This document shows, piece after piece, positions 5,224-61,879 of a stretch of 64,000 nt of DNA. Position 1 is the first letter of the stretch, and each line of letters opens with the position of its first letter. The translations under genes and the position numbers were made by a program. The notes beneath the pieces are model-generated. The model searched no databases and had not been told where the DNA came from. It saw only the letters and a list, made by a program, of their open reading frames with translations. This DNA is from Candidatus Bathyarchaeota archaeon (GTDB lineage: Archaea; Thermoproteota; Bathyarchaeia; Bathyarchaeales; Bathyarchaeaceae). Location: the NCBI GenBank assembly GCA_963772765.1, contig CAVYYP010000006.1:26091-90090 (forward strand). Reading direction: 5' to 3'.

Positions 5224-5395
5224 ATCCTATGACTTAAGTTATGTACTGAAAAAACTATTTAAATAGTAATTACGTTAAATTCAAAATAATTTTTATGCGC
5301 GCGTACAATTGAATAAATAGCTAATGATCCAATTATGTATAACGAGTTAGTTTAGATAGACTCGTAATGAAAATTTAAAGGGGAAGAATAAACTT

Positions 5396-5590
5396 TTGCC
5401 AAATAAAAAATGCCCAAAATGTAAACGTACCGTTAGCTTCACTCAATTTCAGTGGAATCTTGGTGCAGAACTACCCAAGGACTGTCCATGGTGCAACAAA
5501 CCAATAGAGAAAAAAGAAGAAAAACCCAAAGAATATTACCCTGAACAGTCCAAAAACAACTATCATTCTTGGCTTCCAAAAGGTGCATAA
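5396..5590 (+). CDS. small zinc-ribbon protein (hypothetical)
   Basis: CPKCKR...CPWCNK pairs; AAGGGGAAG SD-like motif upstream; TTG start. Confidence 0.35.
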   Translation: MPNKKCPKCKRTVSFTQFQWNLGAELPKDCPWCNKPIEKKEEKPKEYYPEQSKNNYHSWLPKGA

Positions 5591-5758
5591 AATTACAAAT
5601 CGGTATGAATAAAGATAATTATCTTAACGCGAGCTTTTTCCTCTTTTTGTTCCACCCAAAATTACACTACATGACACAAAACAACACAAAAAAAGAGAAA
5701 AATATCACAACAAAAGTGATTCCCAAGAATAGAATTCAATGTTCTTGAAATAGTCGTG

Positions 5759-5890
5759 TTATTTCTTCATTTCACCAACTTGCTTTAGTCCCCAGAAGAA
5801 GAGCCCCAAGAATATTCCCAATCCAATAAAGAATATAGCAAGACCAATTGGTGAACCCCAACCTAGCAATATTTCTAATTCTCCCACCAT
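5759..5890 (-). CDS. 43-aa single-TM micro-protein (hypothetical)
   Basis: Below the track cutoff. Own translation: MVGELEILLGWGSPIGLAIFFIGLGIFLGLFFWGLKQVGEMKK. Preceded by a strong SD-like AAGGGGGTGA. Confidence 0.3.
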   Translation of the reverse strand: MVGELEILLGWGSPIGLAIFFIGLGIFLGLFFWGLKQVGEMKK

Positions 5891-6183
5891 ATTTTCACCC
5901 CCTTCTTAAACAAATACTTCAAAGCAATGAAACTGAGATTATAAACTTTGTGAGCCAAATGACGATTCAGAATGTACATTCTAATCAATTAATTAAAAAA
6001 ATGGAAGAAAAAAAAGGTTAACCTTTAATCCAACCAACCAAGACAGGACGACAAAGGACGACAGTTAATTGACGGATCTATACAGATTGTCTCGAATTTT
6101 TTCCTAAATGGTTAATAAGAAATTGATTCTGATCAACGAAAAATAGTTAAATAAATGAATTGTTAAAAATTGGGTAGGTACGT

Positions 6184-8301
6184 TTGTACGTACTCTACAA
6201 AGGTAGGAAACAATCAATTTTGGGGCAAAAGACACTAGAAGATACGCTAAAGGCTTTCGGATTGACTGACAGAGAGACAGAAATATACATCTATTTAGCA
6301 AAGCAAGGAACCCAAAAGATTAGCCAAATTTCTAAGGCTTTGAAAGCCAACAAAGGACTGGTCTATAGGGTCCTAAACAGTTTACAAAATAAAGAGCTAG
6401 TCCAGGTTACTCTTGAATCCCCTACACGTTACATTGCAGTTCCTTTTGAAAAAATAATTGACAATTATATAAAAACAAAACGAGAAGAAGCAGCTCATAT
6501 TGAAGAAAAAAAACAAGATTTACTTTCAGATTGGAAAAAACTTAACCAAACAAATCTTGAACCAACCCTAGAAACATTTTCTGTAATTGAAGGAGAAAAA
6601 AAAGTATTCCGTAAAATATCTCAGATGGTTAAAGAAACAAGAAAGGAATTAGTCTCAATTGCAACAGTTAATGGTTTAATTCAAGCGGAAAAATATGGTG
6701 TCTTAGATACAATAGTAAATCATCCTTCAAAGTCAACGATAAAGTTTCGATATATAACTAATGTTAATAAAGAGAATATAACTTCAATCAAATTCCTGTT
6801 GAGAAGACATAATTCATTTTTTGCGTTAAAAGGAAAATATCCAGATTTACAAGATCATCTATTTACTAGATTGGTAATTAGAGACAAAGAAGAAATAATG
6901 CTATTCATAAATGATCAAAACCAAATAAATTCAACAAACTCGATAGATGCAGTCTTATGTACAAACTGTAAGTCAATCATTCATCCATTTTATGGACTGT
7001 TTGAAGAAATATGGAACAAATCATCAGATATTGAAGATGTTATTGAAGAAATTGAAAATGGAATAACACCAGCAACTATAGAACTAATTAAAGAACCAAG
7101 CAAAGTCAAAAAAGTATACACACAGGCTTTTAATGAAGGAAAAGATGTTTTAATTGTAACTTCATCTAAAGGGCTTCTTGAACTTGAAAAAAATATAAAC
7201 TTGGTAAAAGACCGGCATAAAAATGGGGCATCAACAAGAATATTAGCTCCAATCACAAGCCAAAATCTTGAAGTTGCAAATAAACTCATGCAATATTGTG
7301 AGATAAAGCACATACCTGATGGATATAAGGAGATTACCGTTGTTGATTCTCAAAAACTCTTCATCTTTAATGATTTTCCATTGACCACAAATGATGTCAA
7401 CAAAAGACTCACCTTCAATAATATTTTGTACACTGAGGAAAAAGAACGCATACTCAAAACTAAGAAACGGTTAGAGAATATTTGGCAAAACTCAATAAAT
7501 CCATCACACTTAGCACTGGAATCTATTATCGATCCAATAGAGTCAATCACCCGATCGAAACCAGCTTCAAAAAAACCCTCATCTGAAGTGATATATGATT
7601 ATTTATTGTCTAAACCAGTGATTTATCAAACAAGTCCAGGTGAATTGACTGAGAAAGAAGTTATAAAAGAAATTCTATCTCAAGAAGAGTCAACAAATTC
7701 AAAGAAATCCATCAAATGTTATTGTAAAATTGGACTTGCTGCCATTAATCCACCAATTCATCTTAATCTACCAAAGCTCTTAATTCAAATCACACAGATA
7801 GATAAAAAATCCTCTTTTGGAGCTGAAGATAGGTTAGTGTTCCATCTATGGAAAGAAACAGCGGACGGATTCAAGTATGTACCAGTGGCTATCATAGGAG
7901 ATAACCCCAATTTTCCTGTTGAAATATTAACCAAAGGTCAATATCGTAATACACCTGCAGCAAAGAATTTCCATTTACTTAAAAGAGAAGAAATTCAATT
8001 CCAAATGTACGGAAATACATTCCTTGCAAGTTGGCTTGTTCCTATAAAGCTTGATGACAAATTAGTCTTGCCACCAGGGACCATTATTCTTGAAACATAT
8101 GGAAAAGTTAACACAAAAAAAGTCGTCCTTGAATATCCAAACGGAGCTAAATATAAAATCCTCTACAATAGATTGGATTCATTTATCACATTCATGCATG
8201 GGTCCTCAAAATATGACGGACCAGGAACAGACGGTCTCTTGTTAAGAGATGCATTTATTGAAATATATCTTCCTGAGCAACAAAAGAATCTAAAAAAATA
8301 G
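6184..8301 (+). CDS. TrmB-family HTH transcriptional regulator with a very long C-terminal extension
   Basis: N-terminal LKAFGLTDRETEIYIYLAKQGTQKISQISKALKANKGLVYRVLNSLQNKELV matches the TrmB winged helix. At 705 aa it is about twice the usual length. The exact start is uncertain (TTG 6184 or a downstream TTG). Confidence 0.7.
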   Translation: MYVLYKGRKQSILGQKTLEDTLKAFGLTDRETEIYIYLAKQGTQKISQISKALKANKGLVYRVLNSLQNKELVQVTLESPTRYIAVPFEKIIDNYIKTKREEAAHIEEKKQDLLSDWKKLNQTNLEPTLETFSVIEGEKKVFRKISQMVKETRKELVSIATVNGLIQAEKYGVLDTIVNHPSKSTIKFRYITNVNKENITSIKFLLRRHNSFFALKGKYPDLQDHLFTRLVIRDKEEIMLFINDQNQINSTNSIDAVLCTNCKSIIHPFYGLFEEIWNKSSDIEDVIEEIENGITPATIELIKEPSKVKKVYTQAFNEGKDVLIVTSSKGLLELEKNINLVKDRHKNGASTRILAPITSQNLEVANKLMQYCEIKHIPDGYKEITVVDSQKLFIFNDFPLTTNDVNKRLTFNNILYTEEKERILKTKKRLENIWQNSINPSHLALESIIDPIESITRSKPASKKPSSEVIYDYLLSKPVIYQTSPGELTEKEVIKEILSQEESTNSKKSIKCYCKIGLAAINPPIHLNLPKLLIQITQIDKKSSFGAEDRLVFHLWKETADGFKYVPVAIIGDNPNFPVEILTKGQYRNTPAAKNFHLLKREEIQFQMYGNTFLASWLVPIKLDDKLVLPPGTIILETYGKVNTKKVVLEYPNGAKYKILYNRLDSFITFMHGSSKYDGPGTDGLLLRDAFIEIYLPEQQKNLKK

Positions 8302-8331
8302 CCTAGTTATAAGACAGTAAAAGGTGTTTGA

Positions 8332-8904
8332 ATGCAAAAAACAAGAGATATAACGTTGATTATCTTTTTTGCCGTTTTATCATTCATCTTTTATGCAACA
8401 ATAGGTCAATTGCCTGTCACCATAACTGGAATAAGAGGCATTGGATATGGTTTTCTTATTATTCATGGGATTCCTCAAGCAGTAGCAATGATGTTCTTTG
8501 AAGGTAGAAGATGGAGATTTTTTGCTATGCACACCCTCTTTGCATTTCTTAGTTTACCTACACAATTGGGTGGTGCACCCTTTGATATTATTGGAAGAAT
8601 CCCTTTAATTTTGGTGGGCTTCGTTGCCGATGTTGTAGTAAATAGTTTTTACAAAATAGCCAAGAAAAACGATAAAATCAAGTGGTGGATTACACTCGGC
8701 TCAGCTTTTCGTTGGGCAATTGACCCTTTTATTTTTCTTATCATTATAAACCTACACGTTGCAACTGACATTCTACCTATTTACCTTCCAATATTTCTAC
8801 TATTGACGCCCCTAATTGTTGTCGAAGGTGCAGCTACAGGATATATCGCATACAAAATCTACATTAGAGTCAACAAAACTAGTAATTTAAGAACGAAACA
8901 ATAA
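8332..8904 (+). CDS. polytopic membrane protein (hypothetical)
   Basis: 190 aa, 5-6 hydrophobic helices, AGGTG SD-like motif. Contains no cysteine. Confidence 0.5.
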   Translation: MQKTRDITLIIFFAVLSFIFYATIGQLPVTITGIRGIGYGFLIIHGIPQAVAMMFFEGRRWRFFAMHTLFAFLSLPTQLGGAPFDIIGRIPLILVGFVADVVVNSFYKIAKKNDKIKWWITLGSAFRWAIDPFIFLIIINLHVATDILPIYLPIFLLLTPLIVVEGAATGYIAYKIYIRVNKTSNLRTKQ

Positions 8905-9236
8905 TTATTTGAAGTCAAACGTCTGATTATGTAAAAGGCTGCATCAGCAAATTAGAACGACACACGATACGACTTTTTGCTAGTACACTTTTCTATCGAA
9001 CCATTCTTTTCTAAAGTATGACTTGATATCATTAACTTTTGCAACCTAAAGAAATCTTGGGAACTAGAAGTAAAAAGTTAGAACCATAGGTTGTACATTA
9101 AAATTACTCGTTCCGTGCTACCTCAGAATATGTGTTGTTCCCAGAACAGTGTCTTCTTGTTTTCTCTTGTCTTGTCTAGACTCTCAACTCTCCACTCTCT
9201 GCTCTCCACTCGTCTTTAGAAAACTCACGATCTCAA

Positions 9237-9302
9237 GTCAAAGATTCTTGACAAACAAAATCAGTTATGTTTAGTTAATGTTTCTTGACAAAAACCCTTT
9301 TC
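9237..9302 (+). promoter_or_regulatory. conserved ~65-nt upstream module, copy C
   Basis: GTCAAAGATTCTTGACAAACAAAATCAGTTATGTTTAGTTAATGTTTCTTGACAAAAACCCTTTTC, ending 22 nt before ATG 9325. About 85% identical to copy B in the same gene-relative orientation. Confidence 0.6.
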
Positions 9303-9324
9303 ATATCATCTGACTAAGGTATTA

Positions 9325-10384
9325 ATGGTGCCCATGGTGAGAATTAGCAGGGTAGTTCTCATTTTATTGTTTGTTCAAATGTTTCTTGTTGTGCATTTGC
9401 CTGTAGCATACGCGGTTGAGTTGACGGTACCAGAGAAGACCTTGGCTTTTTTGGAAGAAGTGGCAATGTTAGACATGACAAAATATAATGCAACATTAGA
9501 AATATTTGATGCTCGTTACCCCGACGAGTTAGATGGTTTGGTCCAGCATAATGTGTATTATATTCTTGTTTCCGATGAAAACGAAATGGAAGCAGCTTTT
9601 GGTTTCAAAAACGAATCCTTTGCACACTGTATGTTAGGAACCCTCACTTCCCCAATTTATTCTCAACCCCAACCAATCAACATAGTTGATTTTGCCAAAG
9701 GTTTTCTGCAGAGATACCAAAGTTACATTGGAGACGCAATCTTTGATGGTGTAAAAGATTATGATGAAGCAAGAAGTATACTAGACACGGTTGATGTAAC
9801 AAAAAATGTATCAATCAATTCCGATCGTGTAAAGCTTGAAGTGGTTAGCAGAACAGAGTATACTGCATTGATTTGGGATGTACGTTTTGAACGGTGTGCC
9901 ATTTCCATGGATGACCCTCGAGTTTCGTAATGGATCAGTTTGTGGTTTCGATGACAGCTGGCGCCTCTATACGGCTGGTAGCACAGACATAAAAATTTCT
10001 AGGGAAGAAGCTGTATACATTGCATTGGAATATTTAGAAGACTTCTCTTGGACTGTGGGAGATCAAGAGATAACAGATTTTGAGATACTAGAAGAACCAC
10101 GAAATATAGAATTGTTTGCAACTAGAAGCAGAGAACCTCTAACAGTATATCCCTATTGGCGTATTGAATTATATCTCGACACAGTTTACCCCGGAAACGT
10201 TAACCGTATATCCTTGGCAATCTGGGCCGACACAGGAGAAATAATTTCTTGCATTCCCCTAGGAGGAGGCGGAGTACCTCCAATCCCAGAATTTCCGTCA
10301 TGGACACCTCTGTTGATTACACTTGTTGTTGCTTTATTTTCTGTCATTTACAAAAAAATGAGTTGGAAAGAGCTGATGAAATGA
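9325..10384 (+). pseudogene. secreted PEF-CTERM protein (PepSY-like region), split by one frameshift
   Basis: ORF 9325..9930 carries only the signal peptide (MVPMVRISRVVLILLFVQMFLVVHLPVAYA). ORF 9878..10384, in another frame, carries only the C-terminal IPEFPSWTPLLITLVVALFSVIYKK sorting signal. The two overlap at 9878-9930. Confidence 0.65.
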
Positions 10385-11431
10385 ATAGAATCAAATCAAC
10401 AGTCGTTGTATTACTGATTCTTTCCCTTGCTTTGGTTACTTTTCCTCAAGTTAATTTAGTTAAAACTGAACCGAACACGATTGTTGTTCCAGATGATTAT
10501 GCTACTATTCAAGAAGCTATCAACAGTGCAACTGGGGGTGACACAGTTTATGTTAGGAAAGGTGTTTATCATGAAAACTTGGGAATAAACAAACCGATAT
10601 TTTTGATAGGAGAAGAAAGTTCAACAACAATCGATGGAAACACCTCACAAAGCTATAGGGTGCCAATAAACATCAACACCTCAAATGTTACTGTTTCTGG
10701 TTTTACTCTTAGTTATGGCTATGCAGGAATCCAATTTCATGGTGTAGGAAATTGTACTGTAGCGGAAACAGAATAACAAATGGTCAGTTTGGAATAGAGG
10801 GGAAACATGGAATAACATAACTGATAATATTTTTGAGAACATAGGAGTTGGAGGTGCTATACGATTTGACGGTTCAACTCACAATTTTGTTCATAAAAAT
10901 TATTTCAGTTCCTGTAATGAGGGTGTCCAAATTATGTGGGGTAGCAACTACAATACAGTTACCGAAAATACTATCGTAAACTGTAAGAATCAGGGTGTTA
11001 GGCTGCAAGAATCTGACTGGAATATAGTGACAGAAAATACAATAAAGAACAATGGAATTGGAATTAGCATTTACAGAGCTAATACCAATTTTATAGAAAA
11101 AAATAATTTCATTGATAATAACCAAGAAGTTGTAGCAAGTGAGTCATATGCACTTGCATGGGGATATGGTTATTCTTTAAACAGTTGGAAAGAAAACTAT
11201 TGGAGTAATTATACCGGTTCAGATAACGATGGAGATGGAATAGGAGACACCCCTTACGAAATTAATGAGGTTAATCGAGACAATTATCCACAAATAGAAC
11301 CAATTGACATGCTTGTACTAATCCCAGAGTTTCCATCATGGACACCTTTACTGATTATGATTGCCGTGGTAGCTCTTACTGTAATTTACAGGCGAAAGCT
11401 AACTCCAAAGAATCAGGGGATAAGAGACTAG
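10381..11431 (+). pseudogene. right-handed beta-helix (NosD-like) PEF-CTERM surface protein with two frame breaks
   Basis: ATG 10381 overlaps the previous stop (ATGA). MNRIKSTVVVLLILSLALVTFPQVNLVKTEPNTIVVPDDYATIQEAI runs in frame 1 to 10776. Homology continues in frame 3 (NRITNGQFGIEG), then frame 2 (WNNITDNIF...NYWSNYTGSDNDGDGIGDTPY...IPEFPSWTPLLIMIAVVALTVIYRRK). Confidence 0.7.
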
Positions 11432-13377
11432 TGAAATCGTCGTCTATAGTTGTTCTGTTACTTCTTTCTTCTATTGTTTTTGTTTCTCTTCAACAAATTA
11501 AAGCAGAGTCTAAAACGATTGTCGTTCCCGATGATCATGTCACTATTCAAGAGGCTATTGACAATGCATCTGAAGGTGACACAATTTTCGTGAAAAAAGG
11601 AAACTATGATGGACCTATAGGTGAAACCTTACTAATTGATAAGACAATCTCGCTAATAGGTGAAGGTTCTTCGGTAATTGGCGAAGACACTACAACATTA
11701 AATTTACATCCACTTTTACTCAATACAACCATCTTTGGTCAACCTTATCCAAAATATAACACATCACTTATTATAAAATCCAATAACGTTACAATCTCAG
11801 GTTTCACAATTAAAATTCCGCCTTCTCCATCTGGGGGAGGTGGAGGAGCCTCTGTAATCGGTAATGGAACTCAAATCGTCGATTGTATTATCAACATACC
11901 AGACATATCCTTGCAAGGTTCTTGCTCAAAAATCACAACAACACAGTTGTTTATTAGTAATCTAGCAATTAGAGGATCAAATCAGAGTATTACTAAAAAT
12001 ATACTTTTTAACGGAGATTTGGAAATAACCAGTTCCTTTAACAATATAATCGAAAATGACATTGGCAAAGAAATACGTTTGAATGGATCATATAACAAAA
12101 TTGTTGGCAACTCATTTTATAGAATTTTCTTGGAGCATTCAGATTTAAACACAATTTCTTACAATAATTTTAGCTGTATTTGGTTGGGTATTTATGGTCA
12201 TACTTGCTCAAATAACACAGTATTTGGAAACATCTTGGATGGAGGCTACATTTGGGGCGTTTTAATGGGTGACGGAGCCCATAACGTCTTTTATGACAAT
12301 ATTATCAAGAATTTTGGTGGAAGCCATGATGGGTATGGTGTGGCAATTGGCGGAAACCATTTAGTGGCTGAAAATAACACTTTTTTTCATAACATCTTTT
12401 TGGACAACAACAAGAATGTCGGATATAATTGGGACCAACTTGGAACAGGCAATTTCTGGGATAATGGAATTGAAGGTAATTATTGGGATGATTATACGGG
12501 TACAGATGCAAATGGAGATGGAATTGGGGACGCTCCTTACATTATTGATGACAAAAATCAAGATAATTTTCCATTAATGAAACCACCCATAATTCCGGAG
12601 TTTTATTCATGGTTACCTGAAGATCAAAATTATCAAGAAATTACCGTCAGGACTGATGGAAGTATTGAACCGGATACAAATTTGCTTGAAAGAAATGGGA
12701 ACACTTACACCTTTAAGGGAGACATTTTTGGCACTATTATGGTTCAAAAAGGTGGTATCACAATTGACGGCGCAGGATATACTCTTCAAGGAAAGAAAGA
12801 AGTTGGTAACGTTGATGAAAGGGGCGTATATTTGGTTGGACCTGACAGGTCTAGTCCGTTGTGTAGAAATGTTGTTGTAAAGAATTTGAGAATTGTTAAT
12901 TTTTGGGAAGGCATATTCTGTATTGGTTCAAGCAACAACAGCATAATAGGTAATTACTTTGAAAATGCAGGTATCCATCTTTTAGGTAGTCCAAACTATG
13001 GCCCAGACTTAATTAAGGGCAATATTTTCGACGGTTCTGTTATTTTTGTTGATTATAATACAGGAGGGACAGATGTTATTACTGAAAACAATTTTTTTGA
13101 TGGTTATGTAATTGTTGGTTTGTCTGTTGTCCCTATTGTGGAAAGAAATTATTGGAGTGATTACAACGGAACAGATAGTGATGGAGACGGCATAGGAGAT
13201 ACTCCATACGTTTCTTCATATGTTTTAGATGAACCAGTTCAAGATAATTATCCAATGATGTCTCCATTGTACATAGAAGTAATCTCAGAATTTCCCTCTT
13301 GGTTTCTATTTCCACTGTTCATCATATCAACGTTAGTTATGATTATTGTTAGGAATATGATTAGAAAGAAGGATTAA
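11431..13377 (+). CDS. double-module beta-helix PEF-CTERM surface protein
   Basis: In-frame GTG 11431 overlaps the previous TAG. Signal peptide, AESKTIVVPDDHVTIQEAIDNASEGDTIFV cap, two NYW(D/S)DYxGTDxxGDGIGDxPY modules, and a terminal ISEFPSWFLFPLFIISTLVMIIVRNMIRKKD. Confidence 0.8.
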   Translation: MKSSSIVVLLLLSSIVFVSLQQIKAESKTIVVPDDHVTIQEAIDNASEGDTIFVKKGNYDGPIGETLLIDKTISLIGEGSSVIGEDTTTLNLHPLLLNTTIFGQPYPKYNTSLIIKSNNVTISGFTIKIPPSPSGGGGGASVIGNGTQIVDCIINIPDISLQGSCSKITTTQLFISNLAIRGSNQSITKNILFNGDLEITSSFNNIIENDIGKEIRLNGSYNKIVGNSFYRIFLEHSDLNTISYNNFSCIWLGIYGHTCSNNTVFGNILDGGYIWGVLMGDGAHNVFYDNIIKNFGGSHDGYGVAIGGNHLVAENNTFFHNIFLDNNKNVGYNWDQLGTGNFWDNGIEGNYWDDYTGTDANGDGIGDAPYIIDDKNQDNFPLMKPPIIPEFYSWLPEDQNYQEITVRTDGSIEPDTNLLERNGNTYTFKGDIFGTIMVQKGGITIDGAGYTLQGKKEVGNVDERGVYLVGPDRSSPLCRNVVVKNLRIVNFWEGIFCIGSSNNSIIGNYFENAGIHLLGSPNYGPDLIKGNIFDGSVIFVDYNTGGTDVITENNFFDGYVIVGLSVVPIVERNYWSDYNGTDSDGDGIGDTPYVSSYVLDEPVQDNYPMMSPLYIEVISEFPSWFLFPLFIISTLVMIIVRNMIRKKD

Positions 13378-13378
13378 C

Positions 13379-14440
13379 ATGAGAAACCTATCAAATATAA
13401 TTGTGTTTCTTTGTTTGCTTCTTTTAATTCCTCCTTTATCTGTTGTTTACGCAATTCAAGATTCTTGGGAAACTTTAGCGCCATCACCAATAACTCATTT
13501 CATAGGTTCTGCTGAGATAGATGAAAAAATATACCTTGTTGGAAGTAATGTAAATTCGAAATATGATCCTGAAACAAACACTTGGACGCCATTGACTCCT
13601 CCACCAATTTCCAACTCTTGGAGTGATGTTGTTGTTTGTCAAAACAAAATCTATCTAATAGGTGGAAATGCGTCAAAACCAACCCAAGTTTATGATCCTA
13701 TTTCTGATACTTGGGAGAATAGAACTTCAATACCTACAACAAGAAGCGCACTGGAAGCTAATGTTGTAGATAACAAAATCTATGTAATAGGTGGACAAAT
13801 GCTTGCAGGTTTATACATTATTAATCCTTCGAGTGCAAATGATGTTTATGATCCAGCAACCGATTCATGGTCCAAAATGGCATCAATTCCTGTACCAGTT
13901 ATGGGGTATGCTTCTACAGTTTTAGATGGCAAAATTTACATAATCTCAGGAGGTAACACAGGAGGACCAGACTACGAACCTACAAATCTGGTTCAAATTT
14001 TTGATCCAAAAACAAACCAATGGACAAACGGTACAAATATTCCTACTGGTGTTGTCTCTGCTAAAGCATGTTCAACAACTGGATTATTTGCACTAAAACG
14101 GATCTATGTGTTGGGTGGGACAGTAACTTCTTATGCTCGTTGGGCTGCCTACAATGTCATTAACTTAATTCAAATATATGATCCAGAATCTGATATTTGG
14201 ACCAACGGTTTGGCTATGCCAAGTTCACGTTTCTTCTATGGGGCTATCTGTCTAAACGATGAAATCTATGTAATTGGAGGTATAAATGGAGAAAATTATT
14301 TGGATGTAAACGAAAAATATACACCACTTGATTACATCCCAGAGTTTCCTTCATTAACACTTTTGGTTGCTGGTTTCTTTGTTATCTCTGTAATATCGAT
14401 ATTTTATAGGCGCCATTTTAACCCGAGGAGGAGAAAATGA
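13379..14440 (+). CDS. Kelch-repeat beta-propeller protein with PEF-CTERM-like anchor
   Basis: Signal peptide; six blades marked by KIYLVGS/KIYLIGG/KIYVIGG/KIYIISG/RIYVLGG/EIYVIGG; C-terminal IPEFPSLTLLVAGFFVISVISIFYRRHFNPRRRK. Confidence 0.8.
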   Translation: MRNLSNIIVFLCLLLLIPPLSVVYAIQDSWETLAPSPITHFIGSAEIDEKIYLVGSNVNSKYDPETNTWTPLTPPPISNSWSDVVVCQNKIYLIGGNASKPTQVYDPISDTWENRTSIPTTRSALEANVVDNKIYVIGGQMLAGLYIINPSSANDVYDPATDSWSKMASIPVPVMGYASTVLDGKIYIISGGNTGGPDYEPTNLVQIFDPKTNQWTNGTNIPTGVVSAKACSTTGLFALKRIYVLGGTVTSYARWAAYNVINLIQIYDPESDIWTNGLAMPSSRFFYGAICLNDEIYVIGGINGENYLDVNEKYTPLDYIPEFPSLTLLVAGFFVISVISIFYRRHFNPRRRK

Positions 14441-16269
14441 AGAAACTCAAATTAACAGTCGTTGTATTATTGGTTTTTTCTCTTGTTTTAGTTACTTTTC
14501 CCCAAGTTAATTTAGTTAAAGCTGAACCGAACACGATTGTTGTTCCCGACGATTATGGTTCTATCCAAGAAGCTATTGACAATGCATCTGAAGGAGATAC
14601 AGTATATGTGGAAAGTGGAGTGTATATCGAAAATCTTGTTATTAACAAACTTATTTCACTAGTAGGCAAAAACAAAGATACAACAATAATTTACTGCAAT
14701 GACAACATTCATCCCACAATTCTGGTAAGCAAAAACGGAGTGAACATTACAGGTTTCACCATACAAAACAATGTTCCATCTCCTTCAAATACTCGTGGCG
14801 GACTTGCAGCCGTGCATTTGCTTCATGTGAGCTATTGCAACATATACCAAAACATTATGGTTACCAGTGGATATGGCGTCTGGCTCTATAACTCTCATTA
14901 CAACAACATATTTGACAATACCATAAAAAATACAAATTACGGAATTTTTGTCGAATCCTCCTTAAACAACACCATAACGCGAAATACAGCTTCAAAGGGT
15001 TGGAATGGAATCTGGCTACAGACATCCTCAAACAACATATTTAGAAACAACAATATGACAGATAATTATTGCAACTTTGCAGTCTCAGGTACTGAACTGT
15101 TGCACTATTATAATGATGTAGATAAGTCAAACCTAGTTAATGGAAAAAGAATTCATTATCTTACTGACCAAGAGAATATAGAAATAAGTTCTTCATTTTT
15201 TCCAGATTTAGGGCTCCTAGTTCTCGTAAATTGCAGAGAAATAACAGTCAAAAACTTGAACATCGTAGACAACTTTTTTGGAATTCTTCTCTTCAATACC
15301 TTAAACTCTACAATAACAAATAACTACATAGGAAACAACAAAAAGGGAATATGGCTCAAATCCTCCAACAGCATAACGATTTGCGATAACAATTTAGATT
15401 CAAACAGCGATGACGGAATTCGACTTGAAAATTCGAAGAACATACTCGTTAGAAACAACACGGTACAGAACACAGGATTTAATGGCATATACCTTGGAGG
15501 AGGGTCAGATAACAACTACATAATTGAAAACATAATGACCAAAAATGGTAACAAAGCCATCAATCTTGAGTCTTCCTCCAATAACAACATAATAAATAAC
15601 GAAGTGACCAACAGTTATTTCGCTGTCAGACTCTATACATCCACCTACAACAAGATAGAAACAAACAGAATAAATTCACCCAAATCTGAAAATGTAAACT
15701 TAATGCATTGTTATCAAGGTGTTGTTATTGACCATCATTCTGACAACAATATCATTGTTAGAAATGTAATTTCAAATAATTTGGAATACGGTATTAAAAT
15801 TCAGTCTTCATCTCAAATCATTATAAGTGAAAACATCATTTCAGCCAATAAGAAGGGTATCGACCTTAGTTCTTCTTCAAGTAACACTATCACAGCAAAT
15901 AACATTAGCGAGTCAAGTGAATTTGCCCTCGGCTTATTAAGTTCTAATGATACCGTTTTTCACAGCAACAATTTCATCAACAATGTGAAACAAATTTACC
16001 ATTATAGCACACGTACCACCTCAGTGAACCTTTGGGATAACGGTACAACAGGTAACTATTGGAGTGATTACGTTGGACAGGACGTCAATAACGATGGCAT
16101 AGGAGATTCGCCATATGTCATTAACGAATATAACCAAGACAACTATCCACTAATTCAACCCGTAATAGTTCCAGAATTTCCTTCATGGACAATTCTGCCT
16201 TTGATTTTAACCATTACACTATTTTCAATAATTTTCAAAAGAAAGCTACACAAAGCTAAGGTCTCTTGA
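14437..16269 (+). CDS. beta-helix repeat PEF-CTERM surface protein
   Basis: ATGA overlap with the Kelch gene and a GGAGGAG SD. The N-terminus is nearly identical to gene 10381. Many NxIxxN beta-helix rungs, NYWSDYVGQDVNNDGIGDSPY, and VPEFPSWTILPLILTITLFSIIFKRKLHKAKVS. Confidence 0.85.
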   Translation: MKKLKLTVVVLLVFSLVLVTFPQVNLVKAEPNTIVVPDDYGSIQEAIDNASEGDTVYVESGVYIENLVINKLISLVGKNKDTTIIYCNDNIHPTILVSKNGVNITGFTIQNNVPSPSNTRGGLAAVHLLHVSYCNIYQNIMVTSGYGVWLYNSHYNNIFDNTIKNTNYGIFVESSLNNTITRNTASKGWNGIWLQTSSNNIFRNNNMTDNYCNFAVSGTELLHYYNDVDKSNLVNGKRIHYLTDQENIEISSSFFPDLGLLVLVNCREITVKNLNIVDNFFGILLFNTLNSTITNNYIGNNKKGIWLKSSNSITICDNNLDSNSDDGIRLENSKNILVRNNTVQNTGFNGIYLGGGSDNNYIIENIMTKNGNKAINLESSSNNNIINNEVTNSYFAVRLYTSTYNKIETNRINSPKSENVNLMHCYQGVVIDHHSDNNIIVRNVISNNLEYGIKIQSSSQIIISENIISANKKGIDLSSSSSNTITANNISESSEFALGLLSSNDTVFHSNNFINNVKQIYHYSTRTTSVNLWDNGTTGNYWSDYVGQDVNNDGIGDSPYVINEYNQDNYPLIQPVIVPEFPSWTILPLILTITLFSIIFKRKLHKAKVS

Positions 16270-16295
16270 TGAAGCGCCCTGTTTTTAGGTCTCTG

Positions 16296-17015
16296 TATCG
16301 AATTTGTATTGTCTATGTAAATGCTGATGCCAACTCCATTATTCCTTACCGTATTTTCTGACACAGAGTTCCAATCAGATTCTTGTAATCTTATTTCAAC
16401 ATCATTACAATCCAAAATCGTGTTCTCAGTAATTGTATTGTAGTGGCTCCCCCACATGACTTGGACACCTTCAGGTACAGAAATTGATAAAATTTCTTTG
16501 AACAATATTATGGCTTGAACCATCAAACCTAATTGCACATCCAAGTCCAATTTTCTCAAAAATATTATCTGTTATTTTATTCCAATTACCACCTCGAATT
16601 CCAAATTGACCATTGGTTATCATGTTTTCCGAAATTGTGCAATTCTCTTCTCTTTGAAATTGGATTCCAGCATAACCATAGCTTAAGGTGAAACCTGAAA
16701 CTGTAACATTAGAGCAAAAGATGTTTATTGGCACCCTATAGCTCTGAGAAGTATTACCATCAATAATTGTTGAATACATATTTTCACCAATTAAACGAAT
16801 TGGAATACGAATGCCCAAATTTTCATGGTAAACACCATTCTTCACATAAATTGTGTCACCAGAATTGGCATTTTGAATTGCTTCTTAAATAGTGGAATAA
16901 TCGTCTGGAACAACAATTGTCCTCGGTTCTGCATTTACTACACCAATCTGTGGAAAAGTAACCATAACAAGAGAAAGAACCAGTAATGCAACGAATGTTG
17001 ATTTGATTCCTACAT
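16296..17015 (-). pseudogene. inverted, 3'-truncated remnant of a beta-helix PEF-family paralogue
   Basis: Minus-strand translation parallels gene 10381 (…TFPQIGVVNAEPRTIVVPDDYSTI*EAIQNANSGDTIYVKNGVYHENLG…ITNGQFGIRGGNWNKITDNIF…EGVQVMWGSHYNTITEN). The start is disrupted (ATGTAGGAATC versus ATGAATAGAATC). TAA at 16887-16885 replaces the conserved Gln. There is one frameshift near 16480. No DGDGIGD or PEF tail remains. Confidence 0.75.
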
Positions 17016-17044
17016 TTTACATGAATAAACTAGTCTGCAGGTAT

Positions 17045-17108
17045 GAAAAGGGGTTTTTGTTAAGAAACATTGACCAAAATCAAATCCTTTTGGTCAACAT
17101 AATTTGAC
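17045..17108 (-). promoter_or_regulatory. conserved ~65-nt upstream module, copy A
   Basis: Gene-sense: GTCAAATTATGTTGACCAAAAGGATTTGATTTTGGTCAATGTTTCTTAACAAAAACCCCTTTTC. Contains an exact 10-bp inverted repeat, TTGACCAAAA (17070-17079) / TTTTGGTCAA (17088-17097). Lies 29 nt upstream of the remnant's ancestral ATG. Confidence 0.6.
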
Positions 17109-17127
17109 TTGTGCTTAAGTAGGGTAA

Positions 17128-17580
17128 CTATGCTATAACTCCTTCTGTTCCTCTTATCTCAAAGTGTTTATCCAGAGCGATGTGAGTGATGTGGTTGAAT
17201 GTGAAATAAATCGATGTGTCAGTGCTATTGCTTGTCTGTATATAGTTGGCTTTGTCCATTATGTAGTATTTGTCGATTACTGTGAGTTCTCCCCAAATTA
17301 GGTCATTTGGAATTGTTATGTTACAAAAAGTATCTTCAGGGGGTCCTCTAAAATCAAATTCAACAATGTTAGCTGGGACTTGAGGTAGATTAACAGTTGG
17401 CGCAGAGGAGTAATTACTTCCAATAGTTACGATATATGTTTTCTCTCCAACTGAAAGAGGATATGTGTATAACGTACCTTCTACCACTCCATTCTCTAAA
17501 GGATTAAGAGCTACACCCAAAATTACAATCAATGAACTAAACAGGAGAATCGCAATAAGGACAATCGGAAACTTGCTCAC
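17128..17580 (-). CDS. secreted or membrane-anchored hypothetical protein
   Basis: GTG start after GGTGAT; N-terminal anchor MSKFPIVLIAILLFSSLIVILGVAL; no recognisable domain. Confidence 0.55.
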   Translation of the reverse strand: MSKFPIVLIAILLFSSLIVILGVALNPLENGVVEGTLYTYPLSVGEKTYIVTIGSNYSSAPTVNLPQVPANIVEFDFRGPPEDTFCNITIPNDLIWGELTVIDKYYIMDKANYIQTSNSTDTSIYFTFNHITHIALDKHFEIRGTEGVIA

Positions 17581-17612
17581 CTAATCACCAACATAAAACG
17601 CGTTTATACCCA

Positions 17613-17676
17613 GAAAAGGATTTTTGTCAAAAAACATTGACCAAATAACAGGTTTTGTTTGTCAATAATCTTTGAC
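17613..17676 (-). promoter_or_regulatory. conserved ~65-nt upstream module, copy B
   Basis: Gene-sense: GTCAAAGATTATTGACAAACAAAACCTGTTATTTGGTCAATGTTTTTTGACAAAAATCCTTTTC, ending 32 nt before GTG 17580. Confidence 0.6.
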
Positions 17677-18036
17677 CTGTTGTTGATGCAGTAAATGCAA
17701 AAGCGAGAGAGATTACATATACTAAAACTGATTTTAAAATGAAGAGCATTTTTAACCGAATGGCTAAAGCAGGTATGATTGAAAAAGTTCCAGGTACTAG
17801 AACAGCATCAACAGCAAGGCGTAAGAAAAAAAGTAATGTATAACTTTCTGATGAACTAAGAAAAACGGTACAGCAACCTTTATTCAAGAATAAAAATACC
17901 GAACTTCATGACAAATAACTTAACAGTATCGCTCAAATCCACACCAACTACAAACCCAAAGATCATTAGACTTTCTATACATCATTTTACATCTCCAAAT
18001 TATTTTCAAATGACTCAAAAAAAAGGGTGTTAAGAG

Positions 18037-18243
18037 TTAGGGTTTAGAAGAGTTAAAAATGGTGGTCTCCTCGTTTTGAATTTTTATGCTTAGGGGACGG
18101 ATTCCAAGTTTCCTTCCACAGCTTGGACATTTGCCGTCAGTCTTATTCCTAAGACGATACAAGGGAATCATATCCCTTCCTTCAAACAGGAGCTTTCCGC
18201 ATCCATGACAGAAAACACTAAAACCCAAACTCAACACCAACAA
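18037..18243 (-). CDS. small zinc-ribbon protein (hypothetical)
   Basis: CHGCGK...CPSCGRK pairs in a 68-aa ORF. Confidence 0.4.
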   Translation of the reverse strand: MLVLSLGFSVFCHGCGKLLFEGRDMIPLYRLRNKTDGKCPSCGRKLGIRPLSIKIQNEETTIFNSSKP

Positions 18244-18703
18244 AACAGATGGCAGAGTCTGAATTTACCGCTTTTCTCGATTAGAATATAAGAGAAGTGG
18301 AGAGACAACTGAAAATAATTGGCTAGCCTTAGACCTACAAAAACAGTTTCATCTTAGAAACAACGAACATAGCTTGGCTATCACCCAACCTGATGTCCAG
18401 AGTTTTATTCATGGATTTTTCTGCCAATATTCTCTTTTGCCACGTTATCTTCAATGTTAATTAGAAAAAAGATGTTTCATCAACGGACATAAGAACATTC
18501 AAAGTATATTTAACTAACCAACTATTCTTACTATGCCATCAAAAGCGAAATACAAACTGAAAAAGAAAGCTCCATTCTGTTTGTTCAATAGAAAGTGAAT
18601 TCATGTTTGTTTTTGAATTGGCTTTCCAACTTCATCCAAAATGAAATCGTAAAATATCAGTTATGATTACATTCAATTATAACCTTAATGCTGGGATGAA
18701 GAA

Positions 18704-19258
18704 GTGACAGAGGAACACTCTTTCTATATGGAGAGTCTTCCAGAGGGGAGCAGAATCGAACAATTATGCAATGAATTAAAGAAATTTCTGACATCTGATA
18801 TTGAGAATCTTCAGCGTTTCCTATTGAAATTATTTGAAACTTGTTATTGTTTTGTGTTTGAAAATCATCAACCATTATTTTCTCCTAAAATTGAAATCAA
18901 TCTAATCTATCAAACAAAGCTATATGAGAAAAAAGTTAAAGAAAACAGCGCAAAAATCAAAGAGCCAGCAAAAGACAAATCATTCGCATTTTATTTGGCA
19001 AATAATGCCAAAGGAACCATTTTCATCAATGTGGAAAAGCTACTATTTTTGTTAGATAAAAGTTATTCAACGTTCATACTAAATTTGGTAATGACCTATT
19101 TTCATGAGATTCTCCATTGTTGCTACCTAAATTTGAGGACCGAAAAAGAAATCTTTAGCATCGAATGTTTACTGGTTGAGAAGTTTTTGGGAATAAATCT
19201 TCCAGAAGAACTGGAGAAACTACAGTCAAAACACCTTCACAAACATGCGCGCGCCTGA
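18704..19258 (+). CDS. hypothetical protein with an HExxH motif
   Basis: 184 aa. The only recognisable element is LVMTYFHEILHCCY (HEILH), a possible minimal zinc-metallopeptidase motif. Confidence 0.4.
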   Translation: MTEEHSFYMESLPEGSRIEQLCNELKKFLTSDIENLQRFLLKLFETCYCFVFENHQPLFSPKIEINLIYQTKLYEKKVKENSAKIKEPAKDKSFAFYLANNAKGTIFINVEKLLFLLDKSYSTFILNLVMTYFHEILHCCYLNLRTEKEIFSIECLLVEKFLGINLPEELEKLQSKHLHKHARA

Positions 19259-19494
19259 ATCACATTCTTCTTAGAATGAGATCGTTTTATAACCGACCAT
19301 AAGAACTACAAATCTATAGTTAACTAATCCCAACTGAACAATATTTTCTACAGAAGCAAACCGAGAAAGGAAATAAAAATCCAAATTTAGCCTTCATAAT
19401 ATAATAACACTCGAATGAACTATTATTGTAACCTGCTGAGAGTGACAAATCTTGGAACAAATTCTAGAATTATTGAGGACAATATTAGATTCGG

Positions 19495-19740
19495 GTGGTA
19501 CTAATACCAGGTTTGGCTTTAGCCTTTGGATTTTACATAGCCTATGTCTTTTTATCAGCAAAAAACGATGTTCCAATGACAAAAGAAGAAGCTGAAACTC
19601 TTTGGAAATTTCATAAACAAAAAGATTGCTGCAAAGCTAAAACATGGCAGGAAATAACTAAGAAAAACAAACTAGTTGGATATGAATGTGAATGTGGATT
19701 TAAGCACATTCAGAAGAAGCATCTAGTAACTGTTGGCTAA
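19495..19740 (+). CDS. small membrane-anchored Cys-rich protein (hypothetical)
   Basis: N-terminal TM helix followed by CCKAK...ECECGFKH. Confidence 0.35.
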   Translation: MVLIPGLALAFGFYIAYVFLSAKNDVPMTKEEAETLWKFHKQKDCCKAKTWQEITKKNKLVGYECECGFKHIQKKHLVTVG

Positions 19741-19853
19741 AATTTTTGATTTACTTGCCTCTGTCTCATAAGAAAACTAAATCTATAGTGGACTCTGAGA
19801 GATTCAAATTTTATCAGAATGACTCTTACGTAACGAAGGAGACAGCATCACGT

Positions 19854-20366
19854 TTAATCTGCAGAACACCATCCACTTTTTTTTAGAAGAACCAAAGTTT
19901 TCTTTATTTCTTCACACCAATCTATCACCATTTTTTCTACTTCTCTTTTATCCTCAATAGTATTACTAACAGCCAATCCCTGTAATACGGAACAAAAACC
20001 AGTAGTTTTTCTCAAATTCTCAAAACTCTTCTCTGGCTTTTTACCACCCAACGTTATAAAAAAAGCTCCCTTTTTCTGAGAAAAATCATTCAAAGACAAA
20101 AATGTCCTAATTGCCGGAGTAATCTTACCAGCCCATACTGGAGAACCAACAACAATAAAATCATATTCATCAATAGACTTTGAAACTTCAATTTCAGTAA
20201 GTTTTTCTCTAAAAGAAGCTGCTCCACCTTTTAGATAAATTAATTTACCTTTTTTATGCCTCTTATCAACTACTTCACACAAATCTGCACCCAATTGATC
20301 AGCAATTATCTTGGCCACAAATTCAGTACTTCCAGTTAACGAAAAATAAACAACTAAACTTTTCAT
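19854..20366 (-). CDS. flavodoxin-fold protein
   Basis: MKSLVVYFSLTGSTEFVAKIIADQLGA... and FIVVGSPVWAGKITPAIRTFL are typical of flavodoxin-like FMN-binding proteins. Confidence 0.75.
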   Translation of the reverse strand: MKSLVVYFSLTGSTEFVAKIIADQLGADLCEVVDKRHKKGKLIYLKGGAASFREKLTEIEVSKSIDEYDFIVVGSPVWAGKITPAIRTFLSLNDFSQKKGAFFITLGGKKPEKSFENLRKTTGFCSVLQGLAVSNTIEDKREVEKMVIDWCEEIKKTLVLLKKSGWCSAD

Positions 20367-20514
20367 TAATCACCCTCACTTTACCTGTAATTTTTCCATA
20401 ATATCATCTTTTCCCAGAACAAACAAACTATCAAATCAAATTTCCTACCTGCTACTATGAAAGCTTGGTTCAAAAACTTTATTTCTAAAAATCACATTCT
20501 TGGTCTGATCCTTC

Positions 20515-20848
20515 ATGTTGGTTTATCTGGTTGCAACTTATTCTGTTTTAATCGGCGTTTTTATGTTTAGTTTTTGGATATATGCAGTTTATTCTGACAT
20601 AATACCTGAAGAGGAAAAACCTTGGGGAATAAGATTTCACTTATTTTCAGAATTTACGACCGCAACAATGTTGACACTTTCAGGAATAGCACAAATTCTC
20701 ATGTTTTGAATGGGCAAAATCAATCTCATTATTGACGTTAGGGATGCTAATGTACATTGTAATTTATAGTGCGCGCGCATTCATATCTGCAAAAATTGTT
20801 GGTGAATTATTTTTTATGTGTGAAAAAGCCAAAAGAGACAGATTTTAG
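20515..20848 (+). pseudogene. small polytopic membrane protein interrupted at a T-run
   Basis: ORF 20515..20709 stops at TGA inside ATGTTTTGA. Skipping one T of the run at 20704-20707 continues as EWAKSISLLLTLGMLMYIVIYSARAFISAKIVGELFF...* to 20848. Confidence 0.4.
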
Positions 20849-20864
20849 AATGAATTTGCTAAAG

Positions 20865-21351
20865 TCATCTAGGTAGGTCTATTCCATTGCATTTAATCGC
20901 AATTTTCGGAGCCAAGGAGAACGCAAAGTAGGTCTGCGCCAACAACAATGTTTCAATTCGGTCAATATTACCAAGGAGACGAATTTTACCGATAAGATGA
21001 GAAACCTGGGATAAGTTCTTGAACCTTGCCCAAACGAAGAAATCGTAATCTCCAACGAGTTCAACAATTAGATATAGTTCTGGCATCTGCATCAGGCTCT
21101 TCATTACATCTTCTTTTTTTACTTCTGGTGCAAGAGACAGCATAAAGAACGTTGTACCTTTGTCACCCAATTTCTTTCCATCTACCAACACCGAACACAC
21201 CTTAATTAGTTCCTTCTTTTTTCATTCTTTCATATCTTTTTCCAACGGTTTGGTGAGACACACCAATGTTCTTCGCTATCTGGGAAAAAGGCATCTGTGC
21301 ATCCCCCATCAGTTCCGTAAGAATCTTGATATCAACTTCGCCCATTGTCAT
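20865..21351 (-). pseudogene. Lrp/AsnC-family transcriptional regulator, one frameshift
   Basis: HTH half from own translation: MTMGEVDIKILTELMGDAQMPFSQIAKNIGVSHQTVGKRYERMKKEG, which stops at TAA 21204-21202. Removing one A near 21210 joins it to LIKVCSVLVDGKKLG...LIVELVGDYDFFVWARFKNL (RAM domain, ORF 20865..21200). Confidence 0.75.
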
Positions 21352-21832
21352 CGACCTTTGCTATGTCTACTTGATTTAATGTTTTAGAGTAATTGTAATA
21401 CGGCTCTCCAGTCCATATGTTAACGGCGACTCGTTTTACCCCCTTAATGTTCTTAATGATCGCGGTAATCTTCTTGAGGTCCTCAATGTCGCTGTGCCCT
21501 AATGAGAGCACATAAATTATACCGTCCGATGCTCTCCGCACAAACAATCACTTTTGCCATCGTTCTTATTTTCTGCTTTATTTGAGGTTCTAGTGAATCT
21601 GTCACATCAATAAGTAGAGTCGCATAGAACGGAAGACCGAATATTTTAGGATCGACCAAAGGCAGGTCCCTACGATAACGCCCTCTTGCCTTAACAGTTT
21701 TATTCTTCTGAGAACTGCGCTTGATGTTAATCCACACTTCTTTGATATTTCTTTGAGACTTGACCGCGCATCTTCGATCAAAATACTCAAAATCATTAAG
21801 TCGAGTTTATCAAGTTGAAATCCATTAGTCAT
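21332..21832 (-). pseudogene. Lrp/AsnC-family transcriptional regulator, two frameshifts
   Basis: Three consecutive fragments in three frames: LDKLDLMILSILIEDARSSLKEISKKCGLTSSAVLRRIKLLRQEGVIVG, then LVDPKIFGLPFYATLLIDVTDSLEPQIKQKI, then IIYVLSLGHSDIEDLKKITAIIKNIKGVKRVAVNIW. Confidence 0.7.
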
Positions 21833-21883
21833 AGTTCTAAGAAAGTGAACCTTTTCATATATTCTTTATGTAGTTGAATTGTG

Positions 21884-21897
21884 CCAATTTAAATTGG
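21884..21897. promoter_or_regulatory. perfect 14-bp palindrome CCAATTTAAATTGG in a divergent intergenic region
   Basis: Read directly. Lies between the Lrp/AsnC gene start (21832, minus) and the surface-protein gene start (22027, plus). Confidence 0.3.
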
Positions 21898-22026
21898 AAA
21901 TATGACAAAAATTGCGTTAAAACTATTATTTAACTAATTATTTCAATTTTTTTGTTTAAATCATGACAAAGTTTAAAAAGTAATTGCGCCAAAAACAGAT
22001 GCTTTAGGGCAGGGTGGAGATAAAAA

Positions 22027-31361: not shown

Positions 31362-31388
31362 TAAGTAATTGATAAATATAAGTTAACA

Positions 31389-31467
31389 GAGTGGCTGGGT
31401 CAAATTTTCTTGACAAATAAAGACCATTTTTTTAGATTTTTTGAAAAAATTTTTGGTCAACAAAACC
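31389..31467 (+). promoter_or_regulatory. diverged fourth copy (D) of the upstream module
   Basis: GTCAAATTTTCTTGACAAATAAAGACC...TTTTTGGTCAACAAAACC shares the GTCAAAnnTTCTTGACAAA head and the TTGGTCAA...AAAACC tail. It faces an ORF-free 600 bp. Confidence 0.35.
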
Positions 31468-61848: not shown

Positions 61849-61879
61849 ATCTTTTAAGCCTTTTTTGAAAAAAGCAAAT

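Follow-up and report, generated by a model that had tools for sequence, protein, structure and literature searches.

In a 64-kb stretch of a Candidatus Bathyarchaeota archaeon genome (contig CAVYYP010000006.1; hereafter the window, with all its coordinates counted from its first letter), a preliminary description made from the sequence had pointed to a conserved module of about 65 nt upstream of three secreted-protein genes. The question raised by this locus is what the module does. We conclude that it is very probably the promoter-operator of a regulon of surface proteins.

We found all three copies where they had been reported, at 9237-9302 on the forward strand and at 17108-17045 and 17676-17613 on the reverse strand. 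The 9237-9302 and 17676-17613 copies are identical in 57 of 66 columns (86%), and the 17108-17045 copy is 75-76% identical to either of the others. The 100-nt flanks on both sides of the copies reach 51-55%, the baseline of such a global alignment, so that the roughly 85% identity first reported for two copies, well above their flanks, was reproduced. When up to 3 mismatches were tolerated, the window contained 6 matches to the 19-mer GTCAAAGATTNTTGACAAA, where chance predicts 0.22; 0 of 100 shuffles gave as many. A 34-nt position matrix, built from the sequences of other genomes only, scored the three copies at 31.5-34.4 bits, while shuffled sequence reached at most 13.3 bits and the rest of the 64 kb at most 12 bits. 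The distance to the start codon, said to be 22-32 nt, was 22 nt for the 9237 copy (first ATG 9325), 22 nt for the 17045 copy (ATG 17022) and 31 nt for the 17613 copy (GTG 17580).

Each module contains two 16-bp palindromes, GTCAA-N6-TTGAC, with starts 34-37 bp apart. The direct TTGAC(A/C)AA boxes of the preliminary description are present, but they are actually the right halves of these two palindromes. The exact inverted repeat TTGACCAAAA-N8-TTTTGGTCAA, described for what was then called copy A, does occur in the 17045-17108 copy, where its arms are the half-sites that face each other, the right one of box 1 and the left one of box 2. The proximal box abuts AAAAAyCC(C)TTTTC, and the start codon lies 35-45 nt beyond the box. 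Allowing 0-1 mismatch, seven boxes fall within the reported copies, which included a fourth, diverged one, and five one-mismatch boxes lie elsewhere in the window, giving 12 in total against a chance mean of 3.6. The parts of the three modules are as follows.

9237..9252, forward strand: module 1 distal box, GTCAAAGATTCTTGAC, a perfect GTCAA-N6-TTGAC
9274..9289, forward strand: module 1 proximal box, GTTAATGTTTCTTGAC, 1 mismatch; matrix match 9270-9303, 33.7 bits
9290..9303, forward strand: module 1 tail, AAAAACCCTTTTCA, matching the Bathyarchaeia consensus AAAAAnnCTTTTA directly after the proximal box
17093..17108, reverse strand: module 2 distal box, GTCAAATTATGTTGAC, from the sequence and the box pattern scan
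17059..17074, reverse strand: module 2 proximal box, GTCAATGTTTCTTAAC, 1 mismatch; matrix match 17045-17078, 31.5 bits
17045..17058, reverse strand: module 2 tail, AAAAACCCCTTTTC, from the sequence
17661..17676, reverse strand: module 3 distal box, GTCAAAGATTATTGAC, from the sequence and the box pattern scan
17626..17641, reverse strand: module 3 proximal box, GTCAATGTTTTTTGAC; matrix match 17612-17645, 34.4 bits
17612..17625, reverse strand: module 3 tail, AAAAATCCTTTTCT, from the sequence

Because of its composition, its place beside the operator and its distance to the Shine-Dalgarno (SD) sequence and the start codon, we infer that the tail, A5-N2-CTTTT(A/C), is a transcription factor B recognition element (BRE) followed by a TATA box. 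In module 1 these would be the A5 run and the TATA-like CTTTTCA. Counted from the start site that this implies, the boxes are predicted to lie at about -37 to -87.

We scanned a species-representative collection of 185,579 genomes with the pattern GTCAA-N6-TTGAC-N15-25-GTYAA-N6-TTRAC and obtained at least 119 loci, at least 56 of them in Bathyarchaeia genomes or metagenome-assembled genomes (MAGs); in all, 201 related loci were gathered (L numbers below). The half-sites and a distance of 31-41 bp between box starts were fixed by the pattern. Nothing in it dictated the taxonomic concentration or the start-codon distance, nor the tail, third boxes, flanks, sixth base and narrower spacing.

The Bathyarchaeia box consensus, GTCAAG-(AAAC/GTTT/AAAT)-CTTGAC with flanks TTR and YAA, is sharper than that of the window, where the boxes are relaxed at the sixth base (GTCAA[A/T]). 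Bathyarchaeia clusters hold two to three boxes, and up to four, with starts 33-37 bp apart and the next box sometimes at +42 to +46. AAAAAnnCTTTTA comes straight after the proximal box, an SD-like G-run (GGTG or GGAG) occupies +37 to +40, and the start codon is most often found at +45 to +49. With up to 2 mismatches, the tail comes right after the matched pair in 30 of the 56 Bathyarchaeia loci and after a third box in most of the others; with up to 3 mismatches it was found in none of the 63 non-Bathyarchaeia matches listed. Clusters lay outside open reading frames (ORFs) of at least 100 aa in 56 of 61 cases, though such ORFs cover 78% of the DNA. The bacterial two-box matches are GC-rich, unrelated palindromes, and a strict two-box scan of 2.9 million viral contigs returned only 2 matches, both unrelated and 64-68% GC. 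The module is thus conserved across the class Bathyarchaeia, and in a full-text literature search with incomplete journal coverage neither its motif nor its regulon nor the candidate regulator presented below turned up. Matches outside the class include TGTCAAG-N6-CTTGACA pairs upstream of genes in Actinomycetota and tandem repeats of about 40 bp in one Pacearchaeota and one Methanoculleus MAG (the unrelated set includes L005, L093, L007 and L024), all without the A5-N2-CTTTTA tail.

The products of the genes downstream of the modules are predicted to share a destination rather than a fold. Among complete downstream ORFs with a length of 150 aa or more, 34/34 have a signal-peptide-like N-terminus as called by a crude hydrophobicity heuristic, compared with 68/255 other ORFs of the same loci (Fisher p = 6e-18). 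Their Pfam families are unrelated, comprising NosD/beta-helix (7), Kelch (5-6), Ig-like, NHL and PQQ propeller proteins, and many have no Pfam match; archaellum and type IV pilus genes were not among these downstream families. Most of the proteins end in a transmembrane helix and a basic tail, of the IPEFPSW type or the PFPTT...YFKKRKH type. Orthologues of a 150-aa protein encoded behind module 3 stand behind modules in L030 (59% identity) and L047 (44%), and orthologues of the window's Kelch protein and of the protein that starts at 9325 also carry the module (orthologue loci L030, L047 and L085). The earlier proposal of a shared operator or promoter that co-regulates envelope genes therefore held up, in the form of a palindrome array with a BRE/TATA-like element that is class-wide, intergenic and placed before signal-peptide genes.

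Radical-SAM genes, some of them with a SPASM domain, recur beside the modules (L123:2-841, L197:2852-3928, L039:2096-3226, L047:187-1212, L085:2472-4430 and 16 more loci). In several loci they are directly downstream of a module, and they are often divergent from the regulator gene described below. These enzymes may be maturases of the surface proteins. The window itself holds no radical-SAM homologue.

The boxes behave as sites in double-stranded DNA. The half-site sequence is invariant and not covarying, and the asymmetric box centre occurs in both orientations (A-rich to T-rich 36:16 in proximal and 57:13 in distal boxes). The bases flanking adjacent boxes show no covariation, with 30/71 Watson-Crick pairs (p = 0.46), and in many loci one box cluster lies between divergent genes and serves both. 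Together these features argue that the element acts as double-stranded DNA, and the box is presumably recognised by a symmetric protein, a dimer.

We clustered the non-secreted neighbours of the modules and found that the top recurrent family is a protein of ~430 aa (~426 aa; L016, L094, L076 and L100). No second DNA-binding family recurs near modules. The N-terminus of the ~430-aa protein matched Pfam HTH_5 and HTH_20 above their cut-offs, as well as DUF7347, and PDB profiles of PH1932, ArsR and NolR; the nearest NCBIfam models, a metalloregulator and the SdpR autorepressor, were both below cut-offs. An AlphaFold2 model (predicted local distance difference test score, pLDDT, 73.8) shows residues 5-85 as a winged helix-turn-helix (wHTH), residues 101-147 as one long helix and, beyond these, an alpha/beta ectodomain, with the hydrophobic segment WKAVLAALAIGLILVASMSYW located after the wHTH within helix 101-147. 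Foldseek matched the N-terminus to SmtB, CzrA, HlyU and NolR (TM-score 0.6-0.77 for SmtB, CzrA and HlyU) and the ectodomain to the C-terminal tandem PepSY domains of YpeB (E = 1e-6) and to the vibriolysin propeptide. The model is consistent with a cytoplasmic wHTH, a single membrane helix and an extracellular PepSY portion, and the protein, hereafter the ArsR-PepSY protein, has both a DNA-binding domain and at least one transmembrane segment, the combination by which transmembrane regulators are defined (PMC10269533). The family comprises at least 1859 clusters of uniform length, named ArsR or wHTH proteins, from Bathyarchaeia, and its recognition helix is invariant, as is the half-site. Residues S46, H48, T50, Y51 and H52 are among its invariant positions. 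Its C-terminal region is 28-40% identical to the protein encoded at 9325-10384 in the window, which is an HTH-less paralogue of the sensor domain, with a signal peptide and a PEF tail, anchored at the surface.

A test independent of the motif used 80 metagenome loci fetched by the N-terminal 125 aa of the ArsR-PepSY protein alone, of which the 74 with at least 300 nt upstream were counted. In 44 of these 74 loci, boxes lie within 400 nt of the start of the gene, and the box starts there are stereotyped, at -70, -102 to -105 and -137 to -148. The promoters are usually divergent. The regulator side has its own conserved core, AAACAAAAGTTTTCTAAGG, and on the opposite side the canonical tail leads to a secreted-protein or radical-SAM/SPASM gene.

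Taken as a whole, the arrangement is best explained, in our judgement probably correctly, as a composite archaeal promoter-operator bound by a dedicated regulator. Dimers of one winged-helix regulator would bind the palindromes cooperatively, and the bound regulator would help to recruit TFB/TBP and so activate, repression by occlusion being the alternative sign. Activation seems the likelier sign because the proximal site touches the BRE, and we lean towards it over repression. The regulator would be a transmembrane one-component protein of ~426 aa, its ArsR/SmtB-type wHTH at the N-terminus being followed by one membrane helix and then by tandem PepSY domains outside the cell, and the boxes in its own promoter would provide autoregulation. 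The predicted regulon brings together surface proteins that are secreted, anchored by the C-terminus and unrelated in fold, and adds some radical-SAM/SPASM enzymes, with the start codon and an SD-like GGTG or GGAG about 35-50 nt past the proximal box. A more speculative extension, which we offer tentatively, is that the membrane-tethered ArsR-PepSY regulator uses its tandem PepSY domains outside the cell to sense the state of the envelope and, at the membrane, directly activates genes across the class for surface proteins and their radical-SAM maturases, with HTH-less PepSY paralogues feeding back on it. If this were true, target genes would gather at the membrane, where transcription, translation and secretion would be coupled, and the HTH-less paralogues (e.g. 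9325-10384), themselves regulon members, would be extracellular partners or decoys of the sensor.

Several observations weigh against parts of this reading. The signal-peptide contrast depends on the heuristic named above, and other secreted or anchored proteins of the window, e.g. 49672-52302 and 61400-62482, have no module. Genes of these genomes do not in general use such a tail as their promoter: of 186 box-less genes, only 8 matched it at 10 bits or more, compared with a median of 15.9 bits for module tails, so that it could be an additional, specific element and not simply a BRE/TATA. When the upstream regions of box-less genes were profiled crudely by k-mers, nothing stood out but SD enrichment at -15 to -10 and diffuse TTTAAA/TAAATA. 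A TATA box at +7 to +14 would put the start site at about +34 to +38, on or near the SD-like G-run, leaving an unusually short leader. The BRE/TATA assignment, activation, the transcription start and the binder are all inferred. As for the regulator, the ArsR-PepSY protein is not encoded in the 64-kb window, it is itself a membrane protein with an ectodomain and so could simply be another regulon target, and 30 of the 74 loci lack canonical boxes at its gene. A divergent boxed promoter is expected of an autoregulated local regulator, and equally of a mere target. With the box-less promoters also considered, we give the ArsR-PepSY protein about an even chance of being the binder of the boxes.

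The box-less regulator promoters keep the core TTTATGACAAAGCTTTCTAAGG ... TAGTTGAAGGTG (L125, L131, L135, L139, L147, L148, L151, L152 and L156), and canonical modules occur elsewhere in the locus at L148, L185 and L190. It thus seems that some lineages have lost autoregulation but kept the regulon motif.

The strongest rival keeps the same cis-module and assigns it to another binder, an Lrp/AsnC-type or other cytoplasmic factor, so that the ArsR-PepSY gene would be only a conserved target. We consider this less probable than not, yet it is a serious contender. Lrp-type arrays also fit tandem AT-centred palindromes ~33-35 bp apart (PMC6396743), and the membrane topology of the ArsR-PepSY protein and its 30 box-less promoters are as expected of a target. 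Against another binder, no other DNA-binding family recurs near modules, the stereotyped and usually divergent boxes of the ArsR-PepSY promoter form the classic layout of a local autoregulator, and the recognition helix is as invariant as the half-site.

It is also conceivable, though we think it rather unlikely, that the boxes are repressor operators, at which the regulator blocks access of TFB/TBP to the BRE/TATA until a signal derepresses. The proximal box does abut the BRE-like A-run. ArsR/SmtB proteins are mostly repressors, and the NCBIfam models nearest to the candidate, although below cut-offs, are a metalloregulator and an autorepressor. Repression is harder to reconcile with boxes that lie wholly upstream of the BRE/TATA-like element, a position that archaeal activators such as Ptr2 typically occupy. 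ArnR sites are placed in the same way (PMC6396743). The non-canonical TATA-like element suggests a need for help, and the promoters of the regulator function box-free in the 30 loci mentioned above.

The preliminary description had named as a candidate binder an unusually long TrmB-family protein encoded near the island:

6184-8301, ~1 kb before module 1: protein of 705 aa, residues 22-89 forming a TrmB-type wHTH (Pfam)

Proximity and the wHTH speak for it, and the remaining ~600 aa have no Pfam domain. We regard this protein as a very unlikely binder, because no box precedes its own gene (6184), homologues of it are lacking both from the 56 module loci of Bathyarchaeia and from all 201 loci, and it is another family that is linked to the boxes. 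The motif is also unlike the TGM sites of TrmB-type regulators.

Still less likely is a by-product of gene duplication, or a mobile repeat resembling a miniature inverted-repeat transposable element (MITE), with no regulatory role. The island is rich in paralogues and pseudogenes, and the 9237-9302 and 17613-17676 copies, 86% identical, are alike even in the inter-box spacer, AAACAAAAyCwGTTAT, whereas orthologous modules (L030:4815-4930 and L047:1316-1432) keep the boxes, tail and SD and differ in their spacers. A spacer shared by these two copies and not by the orthologous modules suggests local intragenomic copying or gene conversion of the promoter, which is part of the reason for the ~85% identity that first drew attention to them. 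However, the genes behind the modules are non-homologous, and orthologues in related genomes carry the module, so it is not a mere by-product of duplication. The boxes and tail are class-wide and at a fixed distance from the start codon, and the clusters are intergenic in 56 of 61 cases. Beyond the boxes there are no terminal repeats or target duplications, the flanks of the copies are unrelated, and the viral contigs gave no more than the two unrelated matches. The random positions or mobile-repeat origin that had been named as grounds for abandoning a regulatory role were thus not what we observed.

Least probable of all is a structured 5' leader RNA (riboswitch or attenuator), an option in the preliminary description that did not stand, because, although the palindromes as RNA can form hairpins (z = -1.1 to -2.3), the window has no Rfam match at the gathering threshold, the three copies adopt different, weak structures, SD and start codon follow within ~45 nt, and the invariant half-sites, the absent covariation, the two centre orientations and the use of one cluster by divergent genes all argue for DNA.

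The genes behind the modules in the window were described as secreted-protein genes. Signal-peptide or secreted-protein genes they are, but a pseudogene stands behind the 17045 copy and a frameshifted gene behind the 9237 copy. The genes around the modules are listed here.

9325..16269, forward strand: operon-like array with overlapping or abutting ORFs, headed by module 1
9325-10384, forward strand: PepSY-type secreted protein, frameshifted; in-frame ATGs at 9325 and 9334, GGTG at 9327-9330
13379-14440, forward strand: Kelch propeller, in the module 1 array
14437-16269, forward strand: NosD-like protein, in the module 1 array, which also holds other NosD-like beta-helix proteins
16155..17022, reverse strand: NosD-like pseudogene behind module 2, a paralogue of 14437-16269
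17128..17580, reverse strand: 150-aa signal-peptide protein of no known family behind module 3, with a GTG start after GGTGA
31399..31414, strand (.): lone perfect box, GTCAAATTTTCTTGAC, not a full module, from the pattern and matrix scans

The 9325-10384 gene has a +1 frameshift near 9876-9881. The NosD-like pseudogene reads ATG-TAA at 17022-17017 and then has more in-frame stops and frame changes, and module 2 is still intact in front of it (31.5 bits). NosD-like fragments lie at 10249-10776 and 10934-11431, and several paralogues in the island are decayed. IPEFPSW, a transmembrane helix and a K/R tail form the C-terminal end of five island proteins (10280-10384, 11330-11431, 13280-13377, 14340-14440 and 16170-16269). 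These ends, also found in several orthologues, resemble the PEF-CTERM archaeosortase signal; NCBIfam reported no PEF-CTERM domain (model TIGR03024) in the island proteins at E <= 0.01, and no archaeosortase gene was identified in the window. The G+C content is 0.32-0.37 over 4001-22000 and 0.36-0.46 (mostly at least 0.39) elsewhere in the window, which suggests that the 4-22 kb region is compositionally distinct. A tRNA scan of the window found no tRNA.

Of the weaker fourth copy reported at 31389-31467, one perfect box (31399-31414) is real, and the rest is degenerate and fails the matrix. This lone box is 37 nt upstream of a divergent HAD-hydrolase start (31361), and on its other side ~600 nt are ORF-free. 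The ORF-free stretch had no blastn or tblastx homology to any fetched locus, and 31362-32064 had no Rfam match at E <= 1. Either a target gene in decay or an RNA missing from the annotation may lie in 31362-32064.

In its working the module is closest to the ArnR/ArnR-box system, but it is no member of that system, since box sequence, regulator architecture and targets differ. In Sulfolobus acidocaldarius the flaB promoter has two ArnR boxes, 15-bp TCGAC-N5-GTCGA sites at -43 to -84, both of which are needed (PMC6396743). Both systems place two inverted repeats of ~15-16 bp just upstream of BRE/TATA, at closely similar positions if our prediction of about -37 to -87 holds. If the ArsR-PepSY candidate is accepted, both also have a membrane-bound regulator with an N-terminal HTH; both have cell-surface targets, and both belong to TACK archaea. 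The box here, however, is the 16-bp GTCAA(G)-N4-6-(C)TTGAC. ArnR has a cytoplasmic HAMP domain and sensor and two C-terminal transmembrane helices, in contrast to the candidate's one central transmembrane helix and extracellular tandem PepSY domains. The ArnR targets are type IV pili and the archaellum, while those of the module are, as judged from sequence, NosD, Kelch and Ig-like anchored proteins.

Other systems share single features with the module. Ptr2, an Lrp-family protein of Methanocaldococcus jannaschii, activates from upstream sites by TBP recruitment; like the module it uses paired palindromic sites directly upstream of a weak core promoter, but it is cytoplasmic, has another motif and serves single operons rather than a class-wide surface regulon. 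Like the candidate, the bacterial regulators ToxR, TcpP and CadC are one-component proteins that cross the membrane once, bind DNA through a cytoplasmic domain, sense through an extracytoplasmic one and have envelope or secreted-protein targets; they differ in combining an OmpR-type wHTH with direct repeats where we find an ArsR-type wHTH and palindromes. The candidate's wHTH fold is that of the ArsR/SmtB proteins (12-2-12 operators), HlyU and NolR, which bind palindromic operators as dimers. The ArsR/SmtB proteins differ in being soluble metal or redox sensors that repress from operators usually overlapping the promoter, and we know of no membrane anchor or PepSY ectodomain in ArsR/SmtB repressors, HlyU or NolR. 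TrmB and TrmBL1 of Thermococcales, archaeal wHTH regulators of sugar metabolism, recognise a palindromic TGM operator and activate or repress according to where it lies relative to BRE/TATA. They are comparable in the placing of a palindromic site relative to BRE/TATA, but their motif and regulon are different and the window's TrmB-like gene is unlinked to the boxes. The ArsR-PepSY family is not described in a survey of archaeal transmembrane regulators, the text of which contains neither ArsR, PepSY nor Bathyarchaeota (PMC10269533). The kind of element is already known; what makes this one of interest is its breadth, its clean link to the surface proteome and the candidate pair of regulator and site in an uncultivated lineage.

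Bathyarchaeia are among the most abundant archaea of anoxic sediments. They are barely cultivated and lack genetics, and our full-text literature search found nothing on their transcriptional regulation. The ~95-aa wHTH as a recombinant protein and a 16-bp palindrome (e.g. GTCAAGAAACCTTGAC) make a pair that can be tested independently of cultivation. If the candidate proves to be the binder, the ArsR-PepSY architecture would be added to the few membrane-bound regulators of archaea whose target site is known, for which ArnR is the only close precedent we found. For the class as a whole, the conserved cis-element offers a handle that needs only sequence: it predicts surface proteins among hypothetical ones, fixes start codons and flags co-regulated maturases.

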